Below the pieces are notes generated by a model. That model was not told the origin of the DNA, did not search any database, and was given only the letters and a program-made list of their open reading frames with translations. The position numbers were made by a program, and so were the translations under genes. Shown in pieces: positions 3,734 through 54,500 of a stretch of 64,000 bases of DNA (positions are counted from its first letter, which is position 1; each line of letters starts with the position of its first letter). Source of the stretch: Stegostoma tigrinum (taxonomy: Eukaryota); NCBI RefSeq assembly GCF_030684315.1, contig NC_081369.1, positions 9,338,035-9,402,034 on the forward strand, read 5' to 3'.

Positions 3734-4297
3734 CATAGAACATACATCGAACATTACAGCACAGTACAGGCCCTTCGGCCCTCGATGTTGTGCCGACCTG
3801 TCATACCAATCTGAAGCCCATCTAACCTACACTATTCCATGTATGTCTGTATGCTTATCCAATGATGACTTAAATGTACCCAAAGTTGGCGAATCTACTA
3901 CCGTTGCAGGCAAAGCGTTCCATTCCCTTACTACTCTCTGAGTAAAGAAACTACCTCTGACATCTGTCCTATATCTTTCACCCCTCAATTTAAAGCTATG
4001 CCCCCTCGTGCTTGCCGTCACCATCCTAGGAAGAAGGCTCTCCCTATCCACTCTAGCTAACCCTCTGATTATTTTATATGTTTCAATTAAGTCACCTCTC
4101 AACCTTCTTCTCTCTAATGAAAACAGCCTCAAGTCCCTCAGCCTTTCCTTGTAAGACCTTCCCTCCATACCAGGCAACATCTTAGTGAATCTCCTCTGCA
4201 CCCTTTCCAAAGCTTCCACATCCTTCTTAAAATGCGGTGACCAGAACTGTACGCAATACTCCAAGTGCGGCCGCACCAGAGTTTTGTACAGCTGCAG
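3734..4297 (-). mobile_element. CR1/HER1 LINE 3' fragment (ORF2 C-terminus and tail), young copy
   Basis: ORF 3827-4315 encodes LYKTLVRPHLEYCVQFWSP...ERRRLRGDLIETYKII...RGH...FFTQRVV..WN.LP, a CR1 ORF2 C-terminal signature. It is nearly identical to 16390-16942 and has a (TTCTATG)-like tail. Confidence 0.95.
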
Positions 4298-4929
4298 CAG
4301 TGGTAATGCTGGCACTCACATTCAACTCTGGACAAGAAAGAGTTATTACCTCTGTCAAACACGAACTCTGATCTCTCTCTCTCCCCTTCAAGATTTATAA
4401 ATATTGAGAAAATCACAGTGCAGCTTCACATTCCAAGATAAAAGGGTGACTTTTGTTTTTATTTTCAGTGTTCTCTTTACCAGTGATCCCTCCTTTTTGT
4501 TTTGATACAAATGGGCCCTTTGGATCATTTGCTATCCCCAAGTTAAAATTATGGGCTGCCCCATGGTAAATTAATAATGTATTAACATGGTACCTTTAAC
4601 TCGTTTCATCTCTATATTTCTCGCTGTAGCTTGGGGTCTGGTCCTTGAATGCAATCATCCCTTGCAACCTTCTACAACTGTTTTTGCTTCAGTCAAAAGC
4701 GTTGTGGTTCCCTGTTACTATCCTCTTCATCAAGTAATTGATTTATCAGTCTCTGGGGCTTTGTCTTTGTGAACAGCTCCAGGGATCATTAACTAGCTAA
4801 CACATGCCAGAAAATTTGGCAATGTTGGTCAGTTCCGACAGTCCAAAGCGAGTGGCATAGTTAATATCTTGATCTGTCCATCCTCTGCTCTGTCTTGTTA
4901 CTACAGATGCCATCGGAGCGGATGGACAT

Positions 4930-7299: not shown

Positions 7300-10200
7300 C
7301 ATCTGATGAGGTAGTGTCTTTCCAACAGCTTCAGCTTGGGGGCCGTGGATGACTCTGGTCGAGTTCAGCCAACATGTGGCGCGACCTTTGCTTCCAGAAT
7401 CACCATGCTCCCCCTAATAATGCACCATCCTCTCCTAAAATCTATTCTGCCCGTGTCTAAAAACATTTCAGTTGTGGTTGTGACAGCCCGTTGGTTTCCC
7501 CCATCACTACTAGTTGTTTCAGCTTTTCCAGAATCTGGTCTTTCCACATCTGAAGCCTGAATCTTTCAGCTGCGAGAGAGTGTGTATAGAAAATTGAAAT
7601 CATTTCAGATGCTTCCAGTGGCTGTACCACTAGTGGTGTAGCTGCCAGTAGGAGGCGGCGCAATTCACCCACATTTGTAAATTTGCCACCCAGTCAGTAT
7701 TCCAATTTGAAATGATACACACTTATTATTAGACCCCACGACTGAATGTGGCCTGAAGCTATCAGCCTTGTCCTCTTTAATTGGACCTAGAAGGGGTTTG
7801 TGATTGGTTATTATTACAAATTTACATCCATGATGGTATTGATGGAATTTCCTGACTCCAGATATGACTGCCAAATCTCCCTTCTCTATCTGGGCATGTT
7901 TACACTCTGTATTAGCCAAAGTCCTGGAAGTATACGCTATTGGCCGTTCCTTTCCACTGGACCATCACTGAGCCAATAACACCCGGAGGCCATGCAGAGA
8001 GGCATCGTATGTACATCTCACTTGGAATTATAGTATGCCAACCCCTCAGCGAATGATAGCTATTTCTTCAGTTTTCTGAAAGATTTGACTTGGCCACGTG
8101 ACCATTTCCAAGGCTGATGCTTTTCGGGAATTGATGCGAAGGTGCCAGGATGGAAGCTAGGTTATGCGTGAACTTTCTGTAATAATTCGCTCGCACAAGG
8201 AAATACATAATTTCTTGTACAGCCATGGGGATAGACACATTCAATCATTCTCACATTATCTTCTGATTTCTGTAACCCTGTTTAGGCCACTTAGGGTGCC
8301 TGGAACACACAGTTTCACTTTCTAATGCATGGACACACCTGGCAAAAATGTCTAAGGAATATGTCCACCTTCCCTGAATGCTCCTGATTGGTCTTCCCCA
8401 TTGTGACGTGACATTGACGTAAGTGTCAACTTAGACTGGCTATGCAGTATGTTCTGCATCATCCACAGAAATATTGCACAGGCTGATTGCACCTGAAATG
8501 GCAGTCTCGTATATTGGTCCAACTCTTATCTGTAATATTTGCAGCACACTTCTGGAAATCCTCAGCAAATTGCAACTGCAAGTATGCATGGCTTATGTCC
8601 AGGTTTGTGAATGGCAGTCCCCTACTATCTATATGTATAAATCCTCTGTTTGAGGGAATAGGCATTAAACGCTGCAAATATGTTTATTGTCTGTTTACGA
8701 TCCCCATTAAGGTAAATTGATGCATTGGGTTTCAAAATTGATACAACCAATGCTGCCTTTCTGCTAATTGGAGTGGTTTGATGGTTCATTTGCTTTTCAA
8801 CCTTCTGCTTTCTGTCTCTACTTTTGCATGTAAGACCAACGGCTCCAGGCAGCCTTGCAGATTTGTGGAGTTTTTCCTGGTCAACATGCAAGGCTGCCTT
8901 GGCTCCTTTGATGGTCCCTAGTATTTCCTGAAAAACGTTCGGGTATTTGATTAGGACTTCACACAGGCAGCAATACGTTGAACCAATCTAAGCGAACCTC
9001 TGTCAACCAATGTCGCCCCATCAAGCGTGGTCCCAAACTTTTTTCTACAATCAGCTGAACCAGCTGCTTCTCATAAGGGACCAGAATTGAAATTGTTCTC
9101 TTAACCTGTAAAAATTTCCCAGTGTAGTGTTTCAGTGTAGCCGAGGTCTTGTGGAAACGTAAATATTGGAGACCAGAGCAAATTTTGTTCATGTTGGGTT
9201 CTGCAATCACTGAAACAGGCACACTATTATCAACCCCCATTATAATTGGATGATTATTTCAACAGATGTTTATTTTGACTGCTTTCGTTTGCATGTTGCT
9301 CAGCAATTTAACTGTCCCAAACCAGATGTAGGTTGACTTTCAAGGTTACGCACTCTCCTGGATATAGGTGTATGAGTTGCCTTACTCAATTTAGGTCCAG
9401 TAGGACTGCTTCTCTGTCTCGGGTCTGTATGGCAACAGCAAATTCAATGGCTTGCTGACCCAAAACCTGAGGAAATTTTAAAATTTTGACCAAGGTTTGG
9501 CTTTGATTTGGGGTTTTGCTGTTGGCTGACCTAATGTTCCTCTATTCAGGATATGTCTTGGCTGTGGTTATCCAACTGCCTTGACTTAAATATTCTTCCC
9601 CAAGCTCAGTCAGACTGGCTAGAGTCTCCAATTCCATTGAAATACCTTGCAACACACTTTCTGCATTTTTCAATGAGAAAGCCTGTTGTAGTTTCTCTTT
9701 GACGTCCAGTTAGGCTTCAGTCTCCAGATGCTTTTGAATGGTGGCTTCATTAAACCCACATACAAACCAGTCTCTCGGTGGCTCATGGCTAAATAAACAA
9801 GAGCCACATGCCTCTTCAACCCGTCTTAACCTCGTCAAAAATCCTGAAATAGAATCTCCTTATTTTCGAATTGCTGAATAAAAGCCATCGAATTAGAGGA
9901 AGCTTTGTTTTTTAATATTATTTACCTAAATTGGTAAACTCTTTAAATGTTTTAAGATCTAGTGTCTCAGGGAAAATTAGGCACCTGATAACTGAAAAAA
10001 TCTGAGGATCCTCAAGCTGTCAGAAGAATTACTCATTACATTCCATGTCTGAGAAAATAAAACCATTCTTTCTAAATATTTGCTGCAGGTTTCAACAGCA
10101 GGGTCAAATGACTCATGCTTCACAAATGATGGCCTGATGCCTGAAATTCTTCTCCCAACTCAAAAACATTGCATTCAAATTTCTTCAGGATTGTGTTTTA

Positions 10201-14814: not shown

Positions 14815-16942
14815 AGATTTAGGGAGCATAGGATGGGGAAGGAAACTGCAGGGGATGGGCACATTAGAAATGTGGAGCTTATTCAAGGAAAAGCTCCTGT
14901 GTGTCCTAGATAAGTATGTACCTGTCAGGCAGGGAAGAAGCTGTAGAGTGCGGGAGCCGTGGTTTACGAAGGAGGTGGAATCTCTCTTCAAGAGGAAGAA
15001 GAAGACTTATGTTAGGATGAGATGTGAAGGCTCAGTTAGGGCACTTGAGGGCTACGAGGTAGCCAGGAAAGACACAAAGAGAGAGCTCAGAAGAGCCAGG
15101 AGGAGACATGAAAAGTTGTTGGCGGATAGAATCAGGGTAAACCCTGAGGCTTTCTATAGGTATTTAAGGAGTAAAAGAATGACGAAAGTAAGATTAGGCC
15201 CAATCAAGGATAGTAGTGGTAAGTTGTGTGTGGAGTCAGATGAGATAGGGGAAGCGCTAAATGAATATTTTTCAACAGTATTCACTCTAGAAAATGAAAA
15301 TGTTGTCGAGGAGTATATTGAGATACAGGCTACTAGACTAGGTGGGATTGAGGTTCACAAGGAAGAGGTATTAGAAATCCTACAGAGAGTGAAGATAGAT
15401 AAGTCCCCTGGGCCGGATGGGATTTATCCTCGGATCCTCTGGGAAGCCAGGGAGGAGATTGCTGAGCCTTTGGCATTGATCTTTAACTCGTCATTGCCTA
15501 CAGGAATAGTGTCAGATGACTGGAGGATAGCAAATGTGGTTCCCCTGTTCAAGAAAGGGAGTAGAGACCACCCTGGTAATTATAGACCAGTGAGCCTTAT
15601 CTCAGTTGTTGTAAAGTGTTGGAAAAGGTTATAAGGGATAGGATTTATAATCATCTAGAAAAGAATAAATTGATTAGGTATAGTCAGCACGGTTTTGCGA
15701 AGGGAAGGTCGTGCCTCACAAACCTTATTGAGTTCTTTGAGAAGGTGACCAAACAGGCAGATGAGAGTAAACCGGTTGATGTGGTGTATATGGATTTGGG
15801 CAAGGCGTTCGATAAGGTTCCCCACAATAGGCTATTGTACAAAATGCGGAGGAATGGATTTGTGGGTGATATAGCAGTTTGGATCGGAAATTGGGTTGCT
15901 GAAAGAAGACAGTGGGTGGTCGTTGATGGGAAATGTTCATCCTGGAGAGCAGTTACTAGTGGTGTACCGCAAGGGTCAGTGTTGGGTCCACTGCTGTTTG
16001 TCATTTTTATAAATGACCTGGATGAGGGCGTAGAAGGATGGGTTAGTAAATTTGCAGATGACGCTAAGGTCGGTGGAGTTGTGGATAGTGACGAAGGATG
16101 CTATAGGTTGCAGAGAGACATGGATAAGCTGCAGAGCTGGGCTGAGAGGTGGCAAATGGAGTTTAATGCAGACAAATGTGAGGTGATGCACTTTGGTAGG
16201 AGTAACCGGAAGGCAAATTACAGGGCTAATGGTAAGATTCTTAGTAGTGTAGATGAGCAGAGAGATCTCGGATGTCCATGTACACATATCCTTGAAAGTT
16301 GCCACCCAGGTTGACAGGGCTGTTAAGAAGGCATACAGTGTTTTAGCTTTTATTAATAGAGGGATCGAGTTCCGGAACCAAGAGGTTATGGTGAAGCTGT
16401 GCAAAACTCTGGTGCGGCCGCACTTGGAGTATTGTACACAGTTCTGGTCACTGCATTATAAGAAGGATGTGGAAGCTTTGGAAAGGGTGCAGAGGAGATT
16501 TACTAAGATGTTGCCTGGTATGGAGGGAAGGTCTTACGAGGAAAGGCTGAGGGACTTGAGGCTGTTTTCATTAGAGAGAAGAAGGTTGAGAGGTGACTTA
16601 GTTGAAACATATAAAATAATCAGAGGGTTAGATAGGGTGGATAGGGAGAGCCTTTTTCCTGGGATGGTTACGGCGAACACAAGGGGGCATAGCTTTAAAT
16701 TGAGGGGTGAAAGGTATAGGACAGATGTCAGAGGTAGTTTCTTTACTCAGAGATTAGTAAGGAAATGGAATGCTTTGCCTGCAACGGTAGTAGATTCGCT
16801 AACTTTAGGTACATTTAAGGCGTCATTGGATAAGCATATGGACGTATATGGAATAGTGTAGGTTAGATGGGCTTGAGATTGGTATGAAAGGTCGGCACAA
16901 CATCGAGGGCCGAAGGGCCTGTACTGTGCTGTAATGTTCTAT
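14815..16942 (+). mobile_element. 5'-truncated CR1/HER1 LINE with near-intact ORF2 reverse transcriptase (frameshifts near 15610 and 16270)
   Basis: ORFs 14855-15634, 15616-16314 and 16253-16861 give KSPGPDGIYP, W..ANVVPLFKKG, NYRPVSL, QHGF..GRSCLTNL, AFDKVPH, GVPQGSVLGPLLF, FADD and LVRPHLEYC, ending in a CR1 tail. Confidence 0.97.
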
Positions 16943-25200: not shown

Positions 25201-26185
25201 AAGCGTTTGAGGAACAGAGCACTGAGATGTAGTTGTGGGCCATTAATTGATTTTACAAGAAATGTACGTGCATTTGAGAAAATACCAACTTTTTGAGATG
25301 TCTGTTGAAGCTTTCTGAAGTGTTTCCTTTATTTCAATCCCTGCATTCATGTTACATTAGTCGCATTAGTTATCCCACAACAGCCAGTGCCTTGAAAGCT
25401 TCCACTGTTTTTGCCCTGGTAACATTGCATCCATCTCATCTACTCTTGATTCCTAATCAATGTGACATAGATGGCCTTTTCAGTGCCTCCTTGTTATCTA
25501 TTTTATTTAACTAAAATGCACGAAATACCAACCATTTCATTATGAGTAGAGCAGTGCTCTCTTGGTGATAATATTTGCAAAGTACCAATAAGCCGTGCTA
25601 ACTTCTTCAATTGTTCAATCCACTGTTTGGATCGTAATTCATCAGAATCAATCATCCACCAACCCTTTAGTCATTGTATTTCAACAGTATCTTTTTGGAC
25701 TGCCTTTTCACCTTTCAGTCTCTCTTTTGGTTTCTTTAATCTGTTTTGTTAATTTAACGTAATCTAACATATTTGGGCCTGATTCTTCATTCTGTTAACC
25801 ACTTGGCTTCTGTCACATGTTGCTCCATCTGGCTGCTGACAAAGACTCTGGGCCAAGAATTAATAGTGGCATCTAATTGCTTAGTATTCTGAACTTATCT
25901 GCATCATTTGACATGCTCAACAAAACAGTCATCCATCAATTGTCCTGTGTCACACTCAAAGTGGTTGCACAAATGTGACTTATCAGCAAACAATTCCTTA
26001 GCATTTAAAATTTAACACTGGCCCACTTCCTTAATGGCTGCTCTCTTGTACACTTTTACCTTGCTAGTCATCTTCGTCACACAGCCCCATTTTTGGTTCG
26101 AGGAGAAGGGAGGGTGGGAAGCACCAATGTACTGTTTCAGTTTTAAACACATCTTGATATCAGGTTCTCTCAGACATGCAGTACA

Positions 26186-26470
26186 GTCATGATGACTGTG
26201 GCAATGTCTGCCAGAATTCTACTGTGATGACTCTCAGCTACCCTCTGATTCACTGTGCTTCTTTACTGGGTCATGCAGTTTGTCCTGTGGAGGTCTCCTG
26301 TGTGGTCATGATGACTGTGCTGATGTGTCCCCGAATTCCACCATGATGACTCTCAGCTGCTCTCTGATTTGCTGCCCTTCTTCTTCATCTGGCAGAGGGT
26401 GTCCTGCGGATGTCTACTAAGCAGTCATGATGACTGTGGGGGTGTCTCCCTGACTTCCAATGTGATGACT
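26186..26470 (+). ncRNA. 119-bp tandem repeat (2.4 units), each unit with box C / D' / C' / D architecture; candidate C/D snoRNA-like array
   Basis: Units start at 26186, 26305 and 26424. Each reads ATGATGA-16nt-(CAGA/CCGA/CTGA)-8nt-RTGATGA-14nt-CTGA. The third unit lacks box D and runs into a CR1 fragment. The repeat is certain; RNA function is inferred. Confidence 0.5.
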
Positions 26471-26480
26471 GTTTGTCACG

Positions 26481-26640
26481 CCTCCACAGCCTGCTGTGGC
26501 AATGATTCCATACATTCTCCTTTCTCTGGATGAAGAAGTCGTGCCTTAATTCCTTTCTAAAGGACTTTTCTCTAAGGCTGTGTCCTCGGGTCCTAGTCTC
26601 TCTTGCCTTCCGGAGCATCTTCTCATTGTCCAGACTGTCC
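26481..26640 (-). mobile_element. CR1 3' fragment
   Basis: ETRTRGHSLR..FRKELR..FFIQR...WN in ORF 26385-26675. Confidence 0.8.
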
Positions 26641-29600
26641 ACGCATAACTCACTGCAGACTCCAGCTACTGTCACACATATGGCCCCTGAGATATGAAGC
26701 TAACAGTGCAGAGGCGAGCCAGCTCTTGATTAAATTATGTAGAATCACAGTGTAAACATTGTAACTGTTACTATTCAGGAAGATTGTTCTCTGAAATCCT
26801 CTTGGAAACATCGAGACAAATATTAAAACTAACCTGATTTCTTGTGAATACTTTATATCACCAACGATTGGAAATTCTCTACAAACATTCTTTCTTTTGT
26901 ATTCCATTGGTTTTACACAAGAAATTAATTGCAAAGAAACTCCATAAATTCGATCAAAATGTATGTATCTGCACCTGCTTATCATTGATACTTATCTGTC
27001 TTGTTTTTGTGACCACTGCCTGCCATCTTTGCACCCAGGCTATTATAATAAGTTGATATCCTTATGCCTGCACACAGATGTCTCCCAGTGTAGAGTCCAA
27101 TCTCAAAAGCAAAACATCACACAAGCAGAGAAGGAATGCTTGAGAATATGATGCCTCTCATTTTCAGAAAATTACAATAACACATTTGTTTTAAAAAAGT
27201 GAAAACAATGGATTAAGCCACCTGGTTACATAGAATCTGCAATACTGCCATTCAATTTTCAATAGTAATTTTATGAGATTGCCTAACTAGCAATCCCTTT
27301 CATAGATTCTGAACGTGTGTCTCTTTTATGAAGACCTTACGTTGAATATTACCTCAATTATGTTTTGCCATCCGGTTTTATGGCAATTTCAACAGACATA
27401 CTGAAAACCCCAATTTAGCTAATCAATGTTGCAATATTTTTCAGGCAACACTCACCATAATGCAATCATTCTTTCACTCTTGTAGCTAGTGTAGGAATAC
27501 TACTTCACTTTGGGACTATTGGGAGTGTGGCCACTGGACTAATGTTCCTGGCACTCATGATCAATGCTGAAACGTGGTCTCAACTGATGAATAACAATGT
27601 TAAGTTCTACTGTACCCTCACCATTTAAATGCAAACTTCAGTGTCAGTGATATCTTCTTACCTGAACTGGAAATGAGAATTCAAATGAAAGTTAACATTG
27701 ATAACGATATTATCTGTCATCAGCGAATGTCAATTATTTTGAAATACAGTTTACGCGAATGGTATGATTGCAGAATATTAAAAAAACTTTCATAGCAATA
27801 TCGATAGTTATTTGTTTGATAAAGATGTCCCTATTGAAAGATGTTAAATTAAGTGTGCCCTCCTCTACAATCAGTTGCTAACTCATTCTGTTGTGGTTCA
27901 AACCCGAAAGTGAAGAAGGACGGGTGTCTGGGAAACGTAAACTGTAAAACAATGCAATATCTCAACTTATCCATCTTACAATGCCAACGGGACTGATCTC
28001 CCATACTAACTCCAATTCTCTACCTATCTCCATATTTGTTGACACTTTATTCATTTTGTTGTCGTGTGTTTTGCAAGAAAGTTAAATATTTCTCGTTTAT
28101 CTCGATGTACCTGTGAGATATTGGCGATGAGGTGATTGGGCAGGACGGGGTTACAGTCAGAGATTTTTTACGGTCGCCGATGGAATTTAGAATAGAACGG
28201 CTGATACTCAAAATAAGCAGTGTCTCATTCGAACATCTACAACTAAGTTAAGGAGAAACTTACTTGGTTTGAATATCTACAAACTTGACTACCTCAGCCA
28301 GTTGCGTTTGCTCTATTCTTAAATAAATTAAACACTATGATAGAAAATTTCTGAACTTTCAGGAATTAAAGAATCTGTACTGCGTGGCAGTAACTGCAGC
28401 TGAGGTGGAAAACCAGGCATGTTTGCCTGCAGAAGGAGAAACTGTCTTCAGGGGACTTATTATCCGGTCTAGGTCTAAACGGTTACTGTGCTGTGTTTGC
28501 TCAGTGCAAAACCATTTCAGCCAATAATCAAGAGAAACCTCGGCGAACCTTTCTCTGGAGCTACAGAGATATCAGGCAGGCTAAGAACCCCCGAAGTTTA
28601 TGCAATGAAGACGTTCAGCAATGAGATGGTTTTCCTTGGTCCGCAAACGATGCTCTCTTATATTTCAAGTAAAATGCAGAACAAAAACCTCCAAGTTGCG
28701 ATAAGATGCAGCTTTGCAAAACCCTTGTTGCAATCCAGACTTGTCAATCATTTTTGACATTGCTTTCACGTTTCATGTGTATTTGCATTCGGGAATATGA
28801 GAACTAAGTAATTATTTCAAATATTACTACATTTTATTTATTCCAGGATATGCAAGACATAAACAAGAGCTGGCAGATTCTGAAACGGCAACGAATTTTG
28901 CTGTAATAGAAATAGTATAACATAGTCATTCCAGAATATTTCAATCTACTGGCTGAAATATCGGTCAGCTGACAGTAACTCTTTCAAACTATGGTGAGAA
29001 ATGATGGTGCAAGTAATTATTTTTTAATATTTCATGGAAATTTTCCGGGTTACTTAAAGATGTGCCGAGGTACTAACTGATTGTTAATAAAACGATGCTT
29101 CCTCAGGTTTGAGGAAGCATATCTTAATATTGTAAATTTGCTGCTCATGTCAGTAATACTGCCCTCTTGCGTAAACGCTGGCAGTATTATATATTATCTA
29201 TAGGCAGCACAGTGCTCCAATGATTGCATTTGTGTACACATGTATAGGTTATCGTTTGTGCGCCTCATCTCAAATTCTTGTCAACTCTTGTTGCAAATTG
29301 GTGAAAACCCACAGCTGTATATTTGTATTCTGGCACGTGTAGGGATAATGTACTAAGGCCGTGCATTTTATTGCATTGGATTTGATCAGAAGCAAGAAGT
29401 TATCCCGCCACAAATATGAAGGGGAAAAATACATTTATGCCAAGGTTGATTTATTGGCATAGATCACCAACATACGATTAACATTTATGCAAATATGAAG
29501 GCAATGGATTCTTGTGGATTGACACTGTTCACAACTGTGGCGTTTTGCAACCCTGCTGATAACAACTTCGAAGCACTGCCTAAAGCTGTGAAAATGATAA

Positions 29601-30244: not shown

Positions 30245-30606
30245 GGGTAGCTGATGGCCTGGTGGAATTATCATCAGACTGTTAATCTAGAGACCCAAAC
30301 CATGTTCGGGGGACCTGGGTTCGAATTTCCCCACGTCAGATGGTGGAATTTGAACTCGATACGTACTTGGAGTTACGAATCTAATGGCTATGAGTACATT
30401 GTCGATGGTGAGTTGAAAAATCCTTCTGGTTCACTGATGCCCCTTAGGCAATGAAACTACCGTCCTTACCTGGTCTAGTGTACATGTAACTACAGCCCCA
30501 CAGCAATGTGGCTGACTCTTAACTGCCCTCTGGACAATTAGGAATGCGTAATAGATGCTGACCTAGCCAGTGATTCTCGCATCGTGTGAATTAATAATAA
30601 TAATAA
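30245..30606 (+). mobile_element. tRNA-derived DeuSINE (SacSINE1-like)
   Basis: A/B-box head (tggcctggtgg...gggttcgaat), Deu-domain-like core ccgtccttacctggtct...cccacagcaatgtggctgactcttaactgccctctg, and an (AAT)n tail. Confidence 0.85.
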
Positions 30607-37577: not shown

Positions 37578-37632
37578 ATGCCAGCGAGGATGATTTTTTT
37601 CTGCCTGACACTACTCGAATTTATTCTTGCTG
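37578..37632 (+). CDS. Exon 1: signal peptide MPARMIFFCLTLLEFILA
   Basis: ATG at 37578, hydrophobic core, phase-1 donor G|GTactt, and a 166-nt intron to the V exon. Confidence 0.85.
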
Positions 37633-40600
37633 GTACTTTGATTTTTGATTCACAGAACTGCTTTAATTCATTAAAGACTTTCGATGCAGCTCCTCCTTCC
37701 ATTAAATAATCTTAATTCATCTATCTGGTTAAGACCTTAACTCTCCTATCTTTATGCCGAATACGACAGTTATCTATGTTTTATTTTGTTTCTGACAGCT
37801 GCGGACCACACTTGTTTTAGGGTTACTCAAACGCCTAAAAGAGCAGCTGCGAACAGACGGGAAGACATTACCTTCTACTGTACATTCTCCATTTGTCAGC
37901 AAAGTTCAAAGCCAAATGTAATTTGGTGGAAGCAGGTTGGGAATGAACGTGTTCAGATTGAAGCCAGTGGTAGACAACAATTTGGATTTGAAAATGAAGC
38001 AACAGCGTTCCTTAGCTTGCTGCGCGTTGATATCCAAGATTCTGGACATTATCACTGCACGGTGAATTACCAAGGAATCGGTCAAAGAAGCGGAACCCCG
38101 TCCCAGCTATTTGTGCGTGGTAAGTGAGAGCGACACTGACTGAAATAATTTGAAATAACAAGATTTTTCCTGATCGCTGATTTCACCAATATTGGCGGTT
38201 AAATCGTGTCCAGTTATCATTTATACAGGAACCTACCCTTGATATTTCAGATCCGTTGAAAAAAAGTAAAATTAGATGATCAATATCACCGGTAGAAAAC
38301 TGAAGCTTTTATAAATATTAACAATTTACGCTGTAATTCTAAAGACAGCCTATACACTATGTGCTTTTTGCCGATATACAAAACTTCCGATGTACATAGG
38401 CAACAAGAAACCGCTTTGTCAGACTATTCGTCCACAATTCTTAGTCCCTGGTATGTTATTGAAGTCGTGTGACTGCCCGACAATTATTTTTTCTGAGATT
38501 GAAGATTCTAGAAATTAATTCTCACATTAATTTCACGTCATAATTTGAAAATCAGCATGAACTTATTTCATGAGTGAAGGAATCGATGCAAAAGAAACAC
38601 AGTTTGACAGATACAAGTAGGTTGAATCACTGACCTAGAATAAATAAAACAACGCAGAGAATCTGTAGCAATAACAAATTTGCTGGAAAAGCTCAGCAGG
38701 CCTGGCAGCATCTGTGGAGGACAAAACAGGGTTAACGTTTCGGGTCCGGTGACCCTTCCTCAGAACTTAAGGTTCAACTGATTCAATGTGTTTTGTCAAT
38801 TGAAATGCCTCGTTTTTGAAATCCGACTGATGCAATGATCTTGGGGTAATCGGCAATCTGCAACTTCACCGCCATTATGCACTTGAGCTTAAAAAAAACA
38901 CCAGGGCAGACGAGCACAATTTGCTTTGTTCCTTTCTTGTGCGCAAGCTCAATTTAATTAATTTATTCAAATATGCGACATAAGCATTGCTAAGCATTTT
39001 GTAGTTTTGTTCTGCCGAGGAAGGCCAGGTATTGGATTTGATAATTCAAGTAAAAATGGATAAAAGCCGCTGCCTGGAGAGCTATTTGTTTCATTAACTG
39101 AATGCTTGTGCATAAAATTAAGTTGAGAAGAAACTGCACTTCTGAGCATTGTAATTATAGGAAAGCATAGCGTCTGTAAATCAGCCTCAAATTTAACAAT
39201 TTCTGATTTGTTCCAGTAACTTGGCTTTGTTCAATCTCTGCTTGCAGTTGCTCCAGTCCCACTGAAAATTACGCCCAAGTTACATGAAGAAAATTCACTT
39301 GTGTCTTTGACCCTTCTGTGTGAAACAGCTGCATTTTATCCGGAGGATTTCACCCTCGCCTGGTATAAAAACGGCACGAAAACTACAGTCGGTATAAATA
39401 CGAGCAAGGTGCAGAACAGTGAGGGACTGTATGAAGTATCCAGTTCTTTGTTTGATCCTCATCCTCCCTCAAGTAATCTCAAGTATACCTGTGAAATATC
39501 TCACATCTCCCTCAAGACGCCTGCTGTTGTAACCCACAGAATTTCCACATTTGGCGGATTCCAAAAAGGCGAGTTAGTTGCTGTCAGTTTTGTTACGAAA
39601 TGCATCGTAGAATAGTGCAACGTGTGGGCGTAATCCGCAGTGGTTTCATGGAGATGTATTTAAATGTATTATACTAAGTTGACATCTCTGTTGTCAGAGC
39701 ATCAAAACTTATTTGGTATTCTTTTTCTTTGACTTTTGAAATAGTAATTATGTTCAGAATTGAGCTGATCTATCCATTTGTTTCTTCCCATCATTTTGTC
39801 CACGTTCACCTTCTTTGCCCAAGCTATGCCTACCTCTTTGTAGGTTACGTGGCACAATCCCTCTTCTGTACCTACACTGGTCCTAAACATCACTTTTTCC
39901 TCTGTTACATTGATGACTGCATTGCCATCTCCTTGTGCTCCCATGAGGAGCTCGAGCAGTTCATCCACTTCACCCACAGACTCCCACAGCTACCTAGAAT
40001 ACACCTCCTCCCACCCACCTTCCTGCAAAAATGCCATTGCCTCCTCCCAATTCCTTTGTCTCTGCCACATCTGCTCCGAGGATGAGGCATTCCACTCCCG
40101 TACATCTCTGATGTCCTCATTTTTCAAGGACCGCAACTTCCCTGCTCAATGGTTGAGAATGCCCTCGACGGTGTCTCCCGCATTTCCCACAACTCATCCC
40201 TCACACATCCTCCCTGCAAAAACAACCAAAACAGAATCCCCCTCATCCTCATGTACCACCCCACCAACCTCCTGATCCAATGCATCATCTTCCGACACTT
40301 CCGCCATCTGCAATCCGACCCCACCCTTAAAGACGTTTTTCCCACCCTCATCTGCTTTTTGGAGGGACCACTCTCTCCATGAATCCCTCGTCCGCTCCAC
40401 ACTCTCCTCCAGCGCTACCACACCGACACTTTTCCCTGCGACCACAGGAAGTGCTACACCTGCCCCTACACCTCCCCCTTCACCCTCATCTCAGGTCCCA
40501 AGAAGACTATCCACATCAAGCAGATGTTCACCTGCACATCTGCTAATGTGGTATACTGATCCACTGTTCCTGTTGTTGCCTCATCTACATCGGGGAAACC

Positions 40601-48675: not shown

Positions 48676-49710
48676 CAATAGACAATAGGTGCTGGAGTAG
48701 GTCATTCGACCCTTCGAGCCAGCACCACCATTCATTATGATCATGGCTGATCATCCACTATCGGGATCCTGTTCCTGCCTTATCCCCATAACCATTGATT
48801 CCACTATCTTTAAGAGCTCTATCCATCACTTTCTTGAAAGTATCCAGAGACTTGGCCTCCACTGCCTTCTGGGGCAGAGCACTCCACATATCCACCACTC
48901 TCTGGGTGAAGAAGTTTTTCCTCAACTCTTGTTCTAAATAGCTTACCCCTTATTCTTAAACTGTGTCCTCTGGTTCTGGACTCACCCAGCAGCGGAAATA
49001 TACTTCCTGCCTCCAGAGTGTCCAATCCCTTAATAATCTTATATGTCTCACGCAGATCCCCTCCCATCCTTCTAAACTCAAGGGTATACAAGCCCAGTCG
49101 CTCCGATCTTTCAACCTATGACCGCCCTCCCATTCCGGGAATTGACCTCGTGAACCTATGCTGCACTCCCTCAATAGCAAGAATGTCCTTCCTCAAATTT
49201 GGAGACCAAAACTGCACACGATACTCCAGATGCGGTCTCACCAGGGCCCTGTACAGCTGCAGAAGGACCTCTTTGTTCCTATACTCAATTCCCCTTGTTA
49301 TGAAGGCCAGCATGCTCTTAGCTTTCTTCACTGCCTGCTGTACCTGCATGTTTGCTTTCATTGAATGATGTACAAGAAAACCCAGATCTCGTTGTACTTC
49401 CCCTTTATCTAATTTGATCCCATTTAGATAGTAATCTGCCTCCCTGTTGTTGCCACCAAAGCGGATAACCACACATTTATCCACATTAAACTGCATCTGC
49501 CATGCATCCGTCCACTCACCTAGCCTGTCCAAGTCACCCTGTATTCTCATAACATCCTCTTTACATTTCACACTGCCGCCCAGCTTTGTGTTATCAGAAA
49601 ATTTGCTAATGTTACTTTTAATGCCTTCGTCTCTATCATTAATGTATATTGTAAACAGCTGCGGTTCCAGCGCCGAACCTTGTGGTACCCCACTGGTCAC
49701 CGCCTGCCAT
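48676..49710 (-). mobile_element. CR1 LINE 3' half of ORF2 and tail
   Basis: VTSGVPQGSALEPQLFTIYIND..SKFSDNTKLGG...LYRALVRPHLEY.VQFWSP (49116-49793) and the ORF2 end (48819-49091). Confidence 0.95.
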
Positions 49711-51529: not shown

Positions 51530-54500
51530 CTTCAATGACACCTGGGCTCAAATGGAACTGTGGGCGGGGGACAGAGAGTTCACAGAGATGACCCCACCCA
51601 CAGCCTACTGCCTGGACATGTTTCCAGCCAGCCTCACCAGGCCAATGCCCCTGCTTATATCTGTCAGCCCCAGCTCCCTTATTGGAGTAGATTTAGAGCC
51701 CCAATCAGGGAAGTCCTATTCAACAAGGTCCACCTGGCTGACCTCATTACAATTGTTACATTCTCCACCCCACCCCCACCAAATCCAGGGACATAGGCCT
51801 GTTCTTTGTCTTGTAGCCTCTCATGGGACATTTTTGCACCAGGTCTGGTTCCTCCAATTTGGCCTCAGGAATGGGTAGCATGTACCAGGCCATGGCCTAC
51901 CTCTTAAATCTAGAGTGTCTCAGAACAAGTTCATTCTCTTCCTCAGCTGGTAAAGGTGCGAGTCTGTGACATTCACTGTGTCCATCTGAGTGTCCAGGTT
52001 GCTTTGATGCTAGACAGAAAGGGAGAACTCACAGGCTTTGACAGCCTTTCTGGCTGTACTGAGGTGCCAGGTATGATTTGATTTTGCCATGTTTATGAGT
52101 TTGCAGCTTTCATGTGGTCCATGTGCTTGTTTAGGACTGCTTCACCTCCGTGAACTTTGTACGTCATGGTTCCTGGCTTTAGGTTAACCATGACTTTTAC
52201 CAACACAGGGCTATTCCCATGGTTCGGTACTAAACTTAGTTCCCTGAAGTAAACCTTTTCCCTCACTTAGAGGACCCTTGTGTCTGGCATTGGCATTCCT
52301 GATGTTATTTTACCGTCCCCCATGGTCCAGGAAGACCAGATTTAACCTGGGTGTGGAGTCTTCTCCCTGTTAGCAACTCTGCAGGAGCTATGCTGGTTAT
52401 TGCATGAGGGGTTGTCTGAAAATCAAACAGGAACTGGGACAGCTTAGTATCCTGTGAAGATGTAGGCTGTTCTGTAATCTTAACTTCAAAGTTTGAACTG
52501 CTCTTTCTGTCAGATCATGGCTGTCCTTATATGCTTAATGCCATTTGTCTTTATGAAATACGTGAGTTCCTTGCTGGTACTTGATGGCCCATTGTCAGTG
52601 ACCAACACTTCTGAAGCCCATGCATTGCAGAAGATGCCTGAAAGCTTTCCATCATCATCCTTGTATTTGAAAAATGAACTCAAGGCACATTCAACCACTT
52701 TGAGTGGGCATCCACAATGACTAAGAAAGTTGAGAACATGAAAGGGCCAGCAGAGTCAATGTATAACTGAGCCCACAGGTCATTCTCACGGATGTGGGGG
52801 AGCTGCTGGCAGTAATTATTATCCTTGTTGGTACTTTGGTTGCTGCCCCATCAACACAGCCATGTCTGGATCCGATCTTGCCCACCAGACATAATATCTT
52901 GTCAACAACTTCAGTTGGAATTTGCCTGATGACCCTGGTGGAGTTCCCCCAGTATCTGGCAGCAACCTTTGCTTGGGACAATCGGTCTTGCTCCTCATAA
53001 TAAAATGCCATTCTCGACAGTAATAGGGGCTCGCCAGGTCTAGTTTCAATTATGCAATGACCCTTCTGTTTCCCCTATCACCACCAGCTGTTTTAGTTTT
53101 GCAGATCTGTTCACAATCTGATATTGTCAGCGGAGACCAGAAGGGTTCCTGAAAATTTACAACCAGAATGGTCTCTTCAAGTAGCAGCAACATCGGTGGT
53201 CTATCTACCAGCTGGAGGCAGCTCAAGGCGTTCACATGTGCTACTTGGCCTCTTGGACAGTGTTCCAACTTGTAATTGTATCCACTTAGCATGAGAACCC
53301 ACCACTGAATTAGAGGTGATGTAATGGGCTGCTTGGCCTTGTCCTCTTTGAATAGCCCTAGAAGGGGTTAGTGGTCTGTTAGTATTACAAATTTACTTCC
53401 ATAAGGATATTAGTGCACCTTTCTCACACAAAAGATGACTGTCAAATCCGTTTTCTTTATGTACGAGTATATATGCTCTACGTCAGCCAAAGTCTGGGAA
53501 CCATGTGGTAGTGAGCGTTCCTCTCCATTCGGCAATCTGTGAGTCAACAGCACCCTGATACAATATGTGGAGGCATTGCAAATCTGTGCAAGATGTTGCT
53601 TGGGATCATAGTGTGCCAACACCTCAGATGATGATAACAGCTTCTTCCCTTTCTTGAAGGTGACATCTTGGCTGTGAGACAATTTTCTAGGCTGATCCTT
53701 TGTCAATAGTAAACGTAAGGGTCGCAGATTGAAGGTCAGATTACTTTGGAATTTTTCAACATAATTCACCAATCGCAGGGCAGCACTAATCTCCATTGTA
53801 GATGTTAAAGATGGGCCACTTTGATTGTCCTCACTTTTCTTCCCAGGTTTTGTAAGCTGGTGTTGTCAACTGCGTACCACAAATAGAACACTTGGGATAT
53901 CTGAAACACACATTTAGTTCCTTTCTAAATGATACAGTCAGCTTAGAGAAATATCTAAAGACTGCGTCCAAGTTCTCTAAGTGCACCTTTTGGCCTTCTC
54001 TGTTATTAGCATGAGACAGGTGAACTGGAGTAGGCCTTGTGAAATGTTCTCCATTGTCTTCTGAAAAATAGGCTGATGACTCCCAAATTAGCAGTCTTGT
54101 ATATTTGTGGGTACAAATTGCATCATATGTCTCAGAATCCTCATTTAACCAAAATAGCAGGTACGTGTGACTCATGTCCAGGCTCATGGAGGACAGCCCC
54201 CACCAAAACACACCAAATTTCCGTATATGTCTTCCATGTGAAGGATTGGGTATTGAGAAGAAATTTATCCATTGTTTAAAATCCTCACTGGTGGAATGAT
54301 TCTTTCACTTTCCAGCCTCCTGATTTCTGCCTCTACTTCTGCACATAAGGCAAACAACACTAGATGGGCCTTGTGGAATCATTGAATTGTTTTCTGGTCA
54401 ACATGCAAGGTGGTCTTAGCTCTTTTGATAGTCTTCGGACAGCCCTGAAAATTTAATTATGACTTCTATGAGCCAGCCATTTTCTAATCAAACAATGTTG

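Follow-up and report, generated by a model that had tools for sequence, protein, structure and literature searches.

A 119-bp tandem array with box C/D-like words is probably the internal module of an unnamed dispersed repeat

The 119-bp array analysed here probably represents the tandem monomers inside a non-coding, moderately repeated element of mobile or dispersed type, of which the window (the whole 64-kb stretch of DNA that was analysed) would hold a dead fragment. A non-tandem flank module and additional sequence upstream of it are common to the relatives of the array, which possess tandem units of their own. The original prediction had interpreted the units as an array of orphan guide RNAs with variable guides. 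This interpretation was not supported: the block belongs to a multicopy repeat, and the guide variants are absent from the contigs of a second species (species B). The likeness to methylation-guide RNAs is most likely a coincidence. Judged from its sequence, the array seems to work like a mobile element containing tandem repeats.

The predicted period was borne out by Tandem Repeats Finder, which placed the array at 26184-26470 with 2.4 copies, 74% matches and a score of 311. The self-similarity of the array exceeds chance (blastn E 8e-26). A pattern scan found RTGATGA words at 26189, 26224, 26308, 26343, 26427 and 26462, CNGA words at 26212, 26331 and 26450, and CTGA words at 26245 and 26364; all box positions originally given were correct, and boxes C and C' are intact in the three units (Table 1). 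Units 1 and 2 show the exact spacing 7-16-4-8-7-14-4, with box C (RTGATGA) near the 5' end and box D (CTGA) near the 3' end, and the spacers between units measure 59 nt. On the plus strand of the 64-kb window the pattern C-N16-CNGA-N8-C' occurs three times and on the minus strand not at all. A simulated 20 Mb (order-2 Markov) contained 15 pairs of C boxes separated by 13-38 nt and not one full loose box layout. The proposed C/D'/C'/D guide layout is a fair mimic that is rare by chance. D' reads CTGA in one of the three units. This rare full layout has to have arisen just once, in the monomer. The unit junction is marked by a 15-nt palindrome (26184-26198 in unit 1), self-complementary at 14 of 15 positions in units 1 and 3 and at 10 of 15 in unit 2.

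Table 1. Coordinates of the array and of neighbouring features in the window
Feature	Position	Strand	Remarks
Flank module of the repeat family	26014..26081	.	non-tandem; left end of the window copy is a truncation; depth and contig numbers jump at 26014
Lead-in	26082..26185	.	variable and degenerate; several relatives skip it (joints from 26081 to 26134, 26165, 26207, 26395)
Unit 1	26186..26304	+	119 bp; C 26189-95, D'-like CAGA 26212-15, C' 26224-30, D 26245-48, then linker
Unit 2	26305..26423	+	119 bp; C 26308, D'-like CCGA 26331, C' 26343, D 26364
Unit 3	26424..26470	+	C 26427, CTGA 26450, C' 26462; ends after C', no D box
LINE fragment, CR1-type (presumed name)	26480..26641	-	frameshifted end of a reverse-transcriptase ORF; cuts unit 3
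Ig-superfamily gene	37590-39615	+	likely leader exon 37590, V-type exon 37741-38124, C1-set exon 39220-39612

A coding repeat was rejected, as the period is not a multiple of three and stops occur in all six frames across the array. Duplication of a half-unit as the origin of the two C boxes was not significant in any of six pairs (p 0.09-0.38). The last 40 nt or so of the lead-in resemble the second half of a unit in a decayed state, its C'-like word being broken. In the window alone the match of the lead-in to unit 2 was not significant (76 of 1000 shuffles); as judged by eye, four of the five majority bases of the relatives at 26147-26180 shift the lead-in toward unit 2.

The evidence for a multicopy block comes from contigs of four runs aligned to 25600-27100 at 80% likeness. 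Two of the runs, X7 and X8, are two studies of species B, and the comparison draws on 40 of the 212 rows of differences, 15 of the 27 joints and 25 records from about 1475. The block from 26014 to about 26470 has many relatives in two species. At 26210 another base was present in 62 (X2), 58 (X7) and 48 (X8) contigs; rows in the flanks were supported by just one or two. Summed depth in X2 stays level across the flanks (13.5-17 in most bins), rises at 26014 and peaks on unit 1, with peak values of 425-540 in X2, 914-1851 in X7 and 217-229 in X8. The core of the LINE, taken as a positive control, reached 15401 in X2, and depth was very high at 26569-26619. Because depth is not copy number, the multicopy claim rests on the contig counts. 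The relatives pile up on 26161-26262, favouring core over linker, and the core of unit 1 is closest to them. Both the multicopy nature of the block and the cutting of unit 3 by the CR1 fragment had been missed originally. No RNA data set was listed as containing 26120-26478, and contigs of X12 matched the LINE fragment only; neither result has a bearing on expression. Two overlapping X2 contigs, one covering 25600-26220 with five other letters and one 26191-26599 with three, span the array and the right junction with few differences; the array is therefore no assembly artefact, with the caveat that X2 may be the source sample.

The contigs also reveal how the relatives are built. Upstream of 26013, 11 contigs of X7 and 8 of X8 continue into one common other sequence (agreement 0.91-0.92), and it follows that the window copy is cut on its left. 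Several joints lead from 26081 into array units. Among the joints listed, back-joints correspond to periods of 118-119 and 236-238, and the letters between them resemble the linkers of the window (27 of 37 for one, by eye). The relatives therefore possess whole tandem units in varying number, and the combination of skips with back-joints of one and two periods is that of a varying number of internal repeats. A variant unit of about 52 nt without a D word was found in both species-B runs, and several long contigs contain merely a short matching stretch. In a species-B piece that is probably the orthologue, the copy and its junction with the LINE are already in place. One X8 contig departs from the window sequence at 25996 and continues for 338 letters; at 25996-26014 species B might retain a larger part of the element or a different insertion. 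In the right flank (26648-26968) species B has two variants and one X2 contig has a 288-nt skip, which hints at local duplication or alleles.

A possible history of the block can be put together from these observations. A non-coding cassette, made up of the flank module plus 119-bp monomers in varying number, would have spread through the genome before the split of the two species. Slippage or unequal recombination, acting at the recurring TGATGAC words and at the 15-nt junction palindrome, may have altered the number of units, and the differences between units would represent neutral decay from a single monomer. The box C-like words, being part of longer conserved DNA words of 15 and 15 nt, may serve the element at the DNA level. 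The window copy would have lost its left part, been cut by the LINE fragment and be decaying, and is not expected to yield a stable small RNA. Terminal repeats, a target-site duplication, a tail and a protein were not found at the window copy, whose two ends are both breaks, and the parent element is unnamed. An internal repeat of a known transposon had been named beforehand as the observation that would speak against guide RNAs; the array agrees with this in shape, although the element is unnamed.

The flanking ORFs had no protein homologue, and they gave no Pfam match in a search that took in 76 proteins (the two flank ORFs together with 74 of the 116 ORFs of at least 78 aa) and seven more. 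Two HMMER hits of flanking ORFs were rejected, since they are long repeat proteins that sum weak matches, one of them a fern LRR protein. The pattern had no match in viral contigs, and 11 metagenome loci containing it were taken as chance because similarity did not extend beyond the motif. A search of the open-access literature, with Repbase and Dfam entries outside its scope, found no description of the repeat or of a shark C/D array.

The conservation of the units bears on whether the boxes or the guides are under special constraint. The 16-nt segments do differ, as predicted, with pairwise identities of 11/16, 12/16 and 12/16 (69-75%), but all non-box positions give 43/56, 22/29 and 22/29. 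Because the identity of the segments is in line with the non-box average, the guides are not specially variable, and their divergence would seem to be mostly decay. Invariant columns make up 20 of 22 in the boxes versus 40 of 56 outside, a difference that is not significant (p=0.079). The conserved runs are two 15-nt words which reach well past the boxes, the first overlapping the junction palindrome. The linkers are indeed heavily diverged, the core being better kept (63 of 78 aligned columns versus 25 of 43), yet they are still homologous (shuffle p=0.002).

Comparison with species B points in the same direction for the guides. At 26321 and 26442 every aligned contig of both runs has the unit-1 base, so the guide differences of the window are absent there, and the window base at 26210 is lacking from nearly all contig depth. 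These three variants and the stem base at 26256 are not common to species B. In most relatives the D' word of unit 2, CCGA in the window, is CAGA, and the majority D' word is CAGA, not CTGA.

Several observations were counted against the mobile-element reading. The layout is rare by chance, the half-unit idea was not significant and the core is better conserved than the linker. Moreover, the block is less diverged than its flanks: the probably orthologous X8 piece (26015-26599) shows 42 differences in 585 positions, versus 95 in 842 for three flank pieces (p=0.010), a contrast of 7% to 11% in which gaps are uncounted and the orthology of the flanks is uncertain, as there are two right-flank variants in species B. 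X7 has the same trend, with 27/349 and 11/206 in the block versus 17/130 and 51/457 in the flanks. Among the 16 array difference rows listed (from 40 of 212 rows), one falls in a box, box positions amounting to about 22%. Finally, units 1 and 2 have different bases at both positions of one stem pair, which stays paired all the same.

A first alternative is that the monomer goes back to a genuine box C/D snoRNA, captured and multiplied by a mobile element, or to a functional orphan cluster elsewhere, the window copy in either case being a decayed offshoot. We regard such a descent as unlikely. In its favour are the exact order C/D'/C'/D and a size like that of fish snoRNAs, the absence of the layout from 20 Mb of simulated sequence, the weak lean to box conservation and the piling up of relatives on the core and not on the linker. 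As to size, zebrafish SNORD32 has 59 nt and a similar layout (compared by eye), so the likeness to archaeal RNAs that had been invoked is unnecessary. A precedent would be snoRTE, an H/ACA-snoRNA-derived retroposon, as cited in PMC4233971. Against descent stand the majority D' word and the results for family, target and stem.

The Rfam comparison that had been suggested yielded no family at gathering score in the 64 kb; on the array the best matches had E 1.1-9.5 and 12-17 bits against cut-offs of 38-55, which is the level of chance. The closing stem reported for unit 1 exists and comprises 8 bp, but the fold is no better than that of shuffled sequences (z -0.16), and three of its eight pairs (26180, 26256, 26257) are broken in most relatives. 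It is also out of K-turn register: in register, both complete units have U-U as their first pair, and the best stem lies 3 nt away. When units 1 and 2 are folded as a consensus, C pairs with C', no snoRNA-type closing stem forms, and none of the 19 pairs is compensatory. The register miss is not fatal in itself, because only 14 of 19 standard-format zebrafish SNORD entries (from the first 22 listed, with three non-standard ones skipped) pair at both first positions when inspected by eye.

Zebrafish guides require nine pairs at positions 2-10, according to PMC7668251. None of the five guides has an rRNA target by this rule in a by-eye, non-exhaustive scan of the zebrafish early and late and the human 18S and 28S rRNAs, in agreement with the original failure to recognise an rRNA target. 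Near misses with eight of nine pairs occur in three guides, about 0.67 being expected per guide. The D' guide of unit 1 reaches 8/9 in the SNORD72/78 region of 28S, solely through base 26210; the D guide of unit 2 does so near the 3' end of 28S and also, in the late zebrafish 28S only, by pairing at 3-10 with a mismatch at 2; the D guide of unit 1 has its mismatch at 4. Eight letters of the unit-1 D' guide (26204-26211) are, by eye, part of the guides of zebrafish SNORD72 and SNORD78, a match that depends on a base lacking in nearly all relatives. Orphan snoRNAs need no target. Since stem register, target and family match were all tested with a negative outcome, we do not file the array as a box C/D snoRNA.

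The second alternative is a satellite-like or clustered tandem repeat, a short piece of which was moved to the window with its flank by recombination or repair and without a transposon. The tandem back-joints of the relatives, the breaks at both ends of the window copy and the fact that no transposon hallmark was seen would fit this explanation, and the contigs do not separate dispersed from clustered relatives, low-copy flanks being known for the window copy only. However, the relatives have in common the non-tandem flank module and the upstream sequence, and the long contigs with a short matching stretch agree with a cassette of few units. We consider the satellite explanation doubtful.

That the array is a functional local cluster of orphan guide RNAs of the C/D type whose guides have diversified is very improbable: C and C' are intact in three units, unit 1 has its 8-bp stem and the block is less diverged than the flanks in species B (p=0.010), but unit 3 is destroyed by the LINE fragment, the variants at 26210, 26321, 26442 and 26256 are not common to species B, the 59-nt spacers lack splice signals, and no host exons were found on the plus strand. 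Between the units there is no GTRAG donor, and the pyrimidine tracts are weak (10, 7 and 11 of 16). A plus-strand host gene had not been recognised originally either; because the likely leader exon of the Ig-superfamily gene starts about 11 kb downstream, the array lies outside the coding introns of this V-C1 gene, although a non-coding host spanning the block may exist. Clustered intergenic snoRNAs do exist in zebrafish, as stated in PMC11880993.

The window consists mainly of LINE and LTR-element debris plus the single Ig-superfamily gene, whose closest solved relatives are weak matches (titin, CD79b). Recombination-signal heptamers, considered because an Ig-type gene lies nearby, were rejected by eye for lack of a nonamer at 12 or 23 nt. 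The LINE fragment next to unit 3, which we take to be CR1 from its peptide, is 65% identical over 170 nt to a LINE copy near 48855-49024 (E 3e-10) and matches a profile of the window copies with E 4e-11; a Pfam search of its ORF gave no match. Insertion of the array within a single LINE copy was rejected, as the profile found no LINE to the left of the array, and a resumption of unit 3 beyond the fragment was not significant (191 and 58 of 1000 shuffles). Two LINE 3' ends, at 3746-4299 and 16389-16942, are 94% alike, lie in opposite orientation and are 12 kb apart. Broken LTR-element fragments at 7668-7964 and 52513-53865 (minus strand) have RNase H-like and integrase matches. Within an element that is presumably SINE-like, the stretch 30511-30532 resembles the second half of a unit (nhmmer E 0.29, not significant). 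A tRNA scan of the window found no tRNA.

If the preferred reading of an unnamed repeat with internal monomers is correct, the array is of little consequence in itself, but it cautions that, in this lineage, snoRNA scanners can be expected to report false C/D candidates in large numbers. There is a slim chance of a more consequential case, in which a vertebrate mobile element captured a C/D snoRNA as its tandem monomers, thereby seeding putative K-turn- or Snu13-binding units across the genome, with some copies still yielding small RNAs. Such a case would be the C/D counterpart of the H/ACA snoRTE, in which a C/D snoRNA had become the monomer of a mobile element. It would offer a testable route for the seeding of tandem orphan clusters such as SNORD115/116.

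Comparison with known systems shows partial likeness to several. With the zebrafish SNORD set (PMC7668251) the units share the RUGAUGA and CUGA consensus, the four-box order and a core of 55-65 nt. Unlike vertebrate C/D snoRNAs they have no canonical terminal pairs, no 2-10 rRNA target and no host intron, and they stand in a multicopy flank context; moreover, the perfect box is C' (three of three units) and the imperfect one D', opposite to what is seen in zebrafish, and this also counts against descent from a snoRNA. The SNORD115 and SNORD116 clusters (PMC3845636) likewise consist of tandem related C/D units without an rRNA target. There, however, typically one copy resides per intron of a long non-coding host, which speaks against a functional array, whereas the units described here are 59 nt apart, have no splice signals and lie in a truncated repeat. 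In snoRTE (as cited in PMC4233971) an H/ACA snoRNA is joined to an RTE tail; the array is C/D-like, and neither a parent snoRNA nor a LINE tail was identified.

The closest parallels are with tandem-repeat-containing elements of the kind represented by the MITE DTC84 of the clam Donax trunculus (PMC3879986), and they lie in anatomy. The array differs in having a vertebrate host and a 119-bp unit, and the terminal inverted repeats, AA target duplication and microsatellite of the DTC84 group were not seen in the window copy, whose ends are missing. In DTC84 there are as many as five core repeats; each has a palindrome close to the junction, within a stretch that varies less. Like DTC84, pearl/CvA and DINE-1 as described in that source, the array consists of a few head-to-tail core repeats, varying in number, within a multicopy cassette, and, as in elements of the DTC84 type, the palindrome near its unit junction falls within a better-conserved segment.
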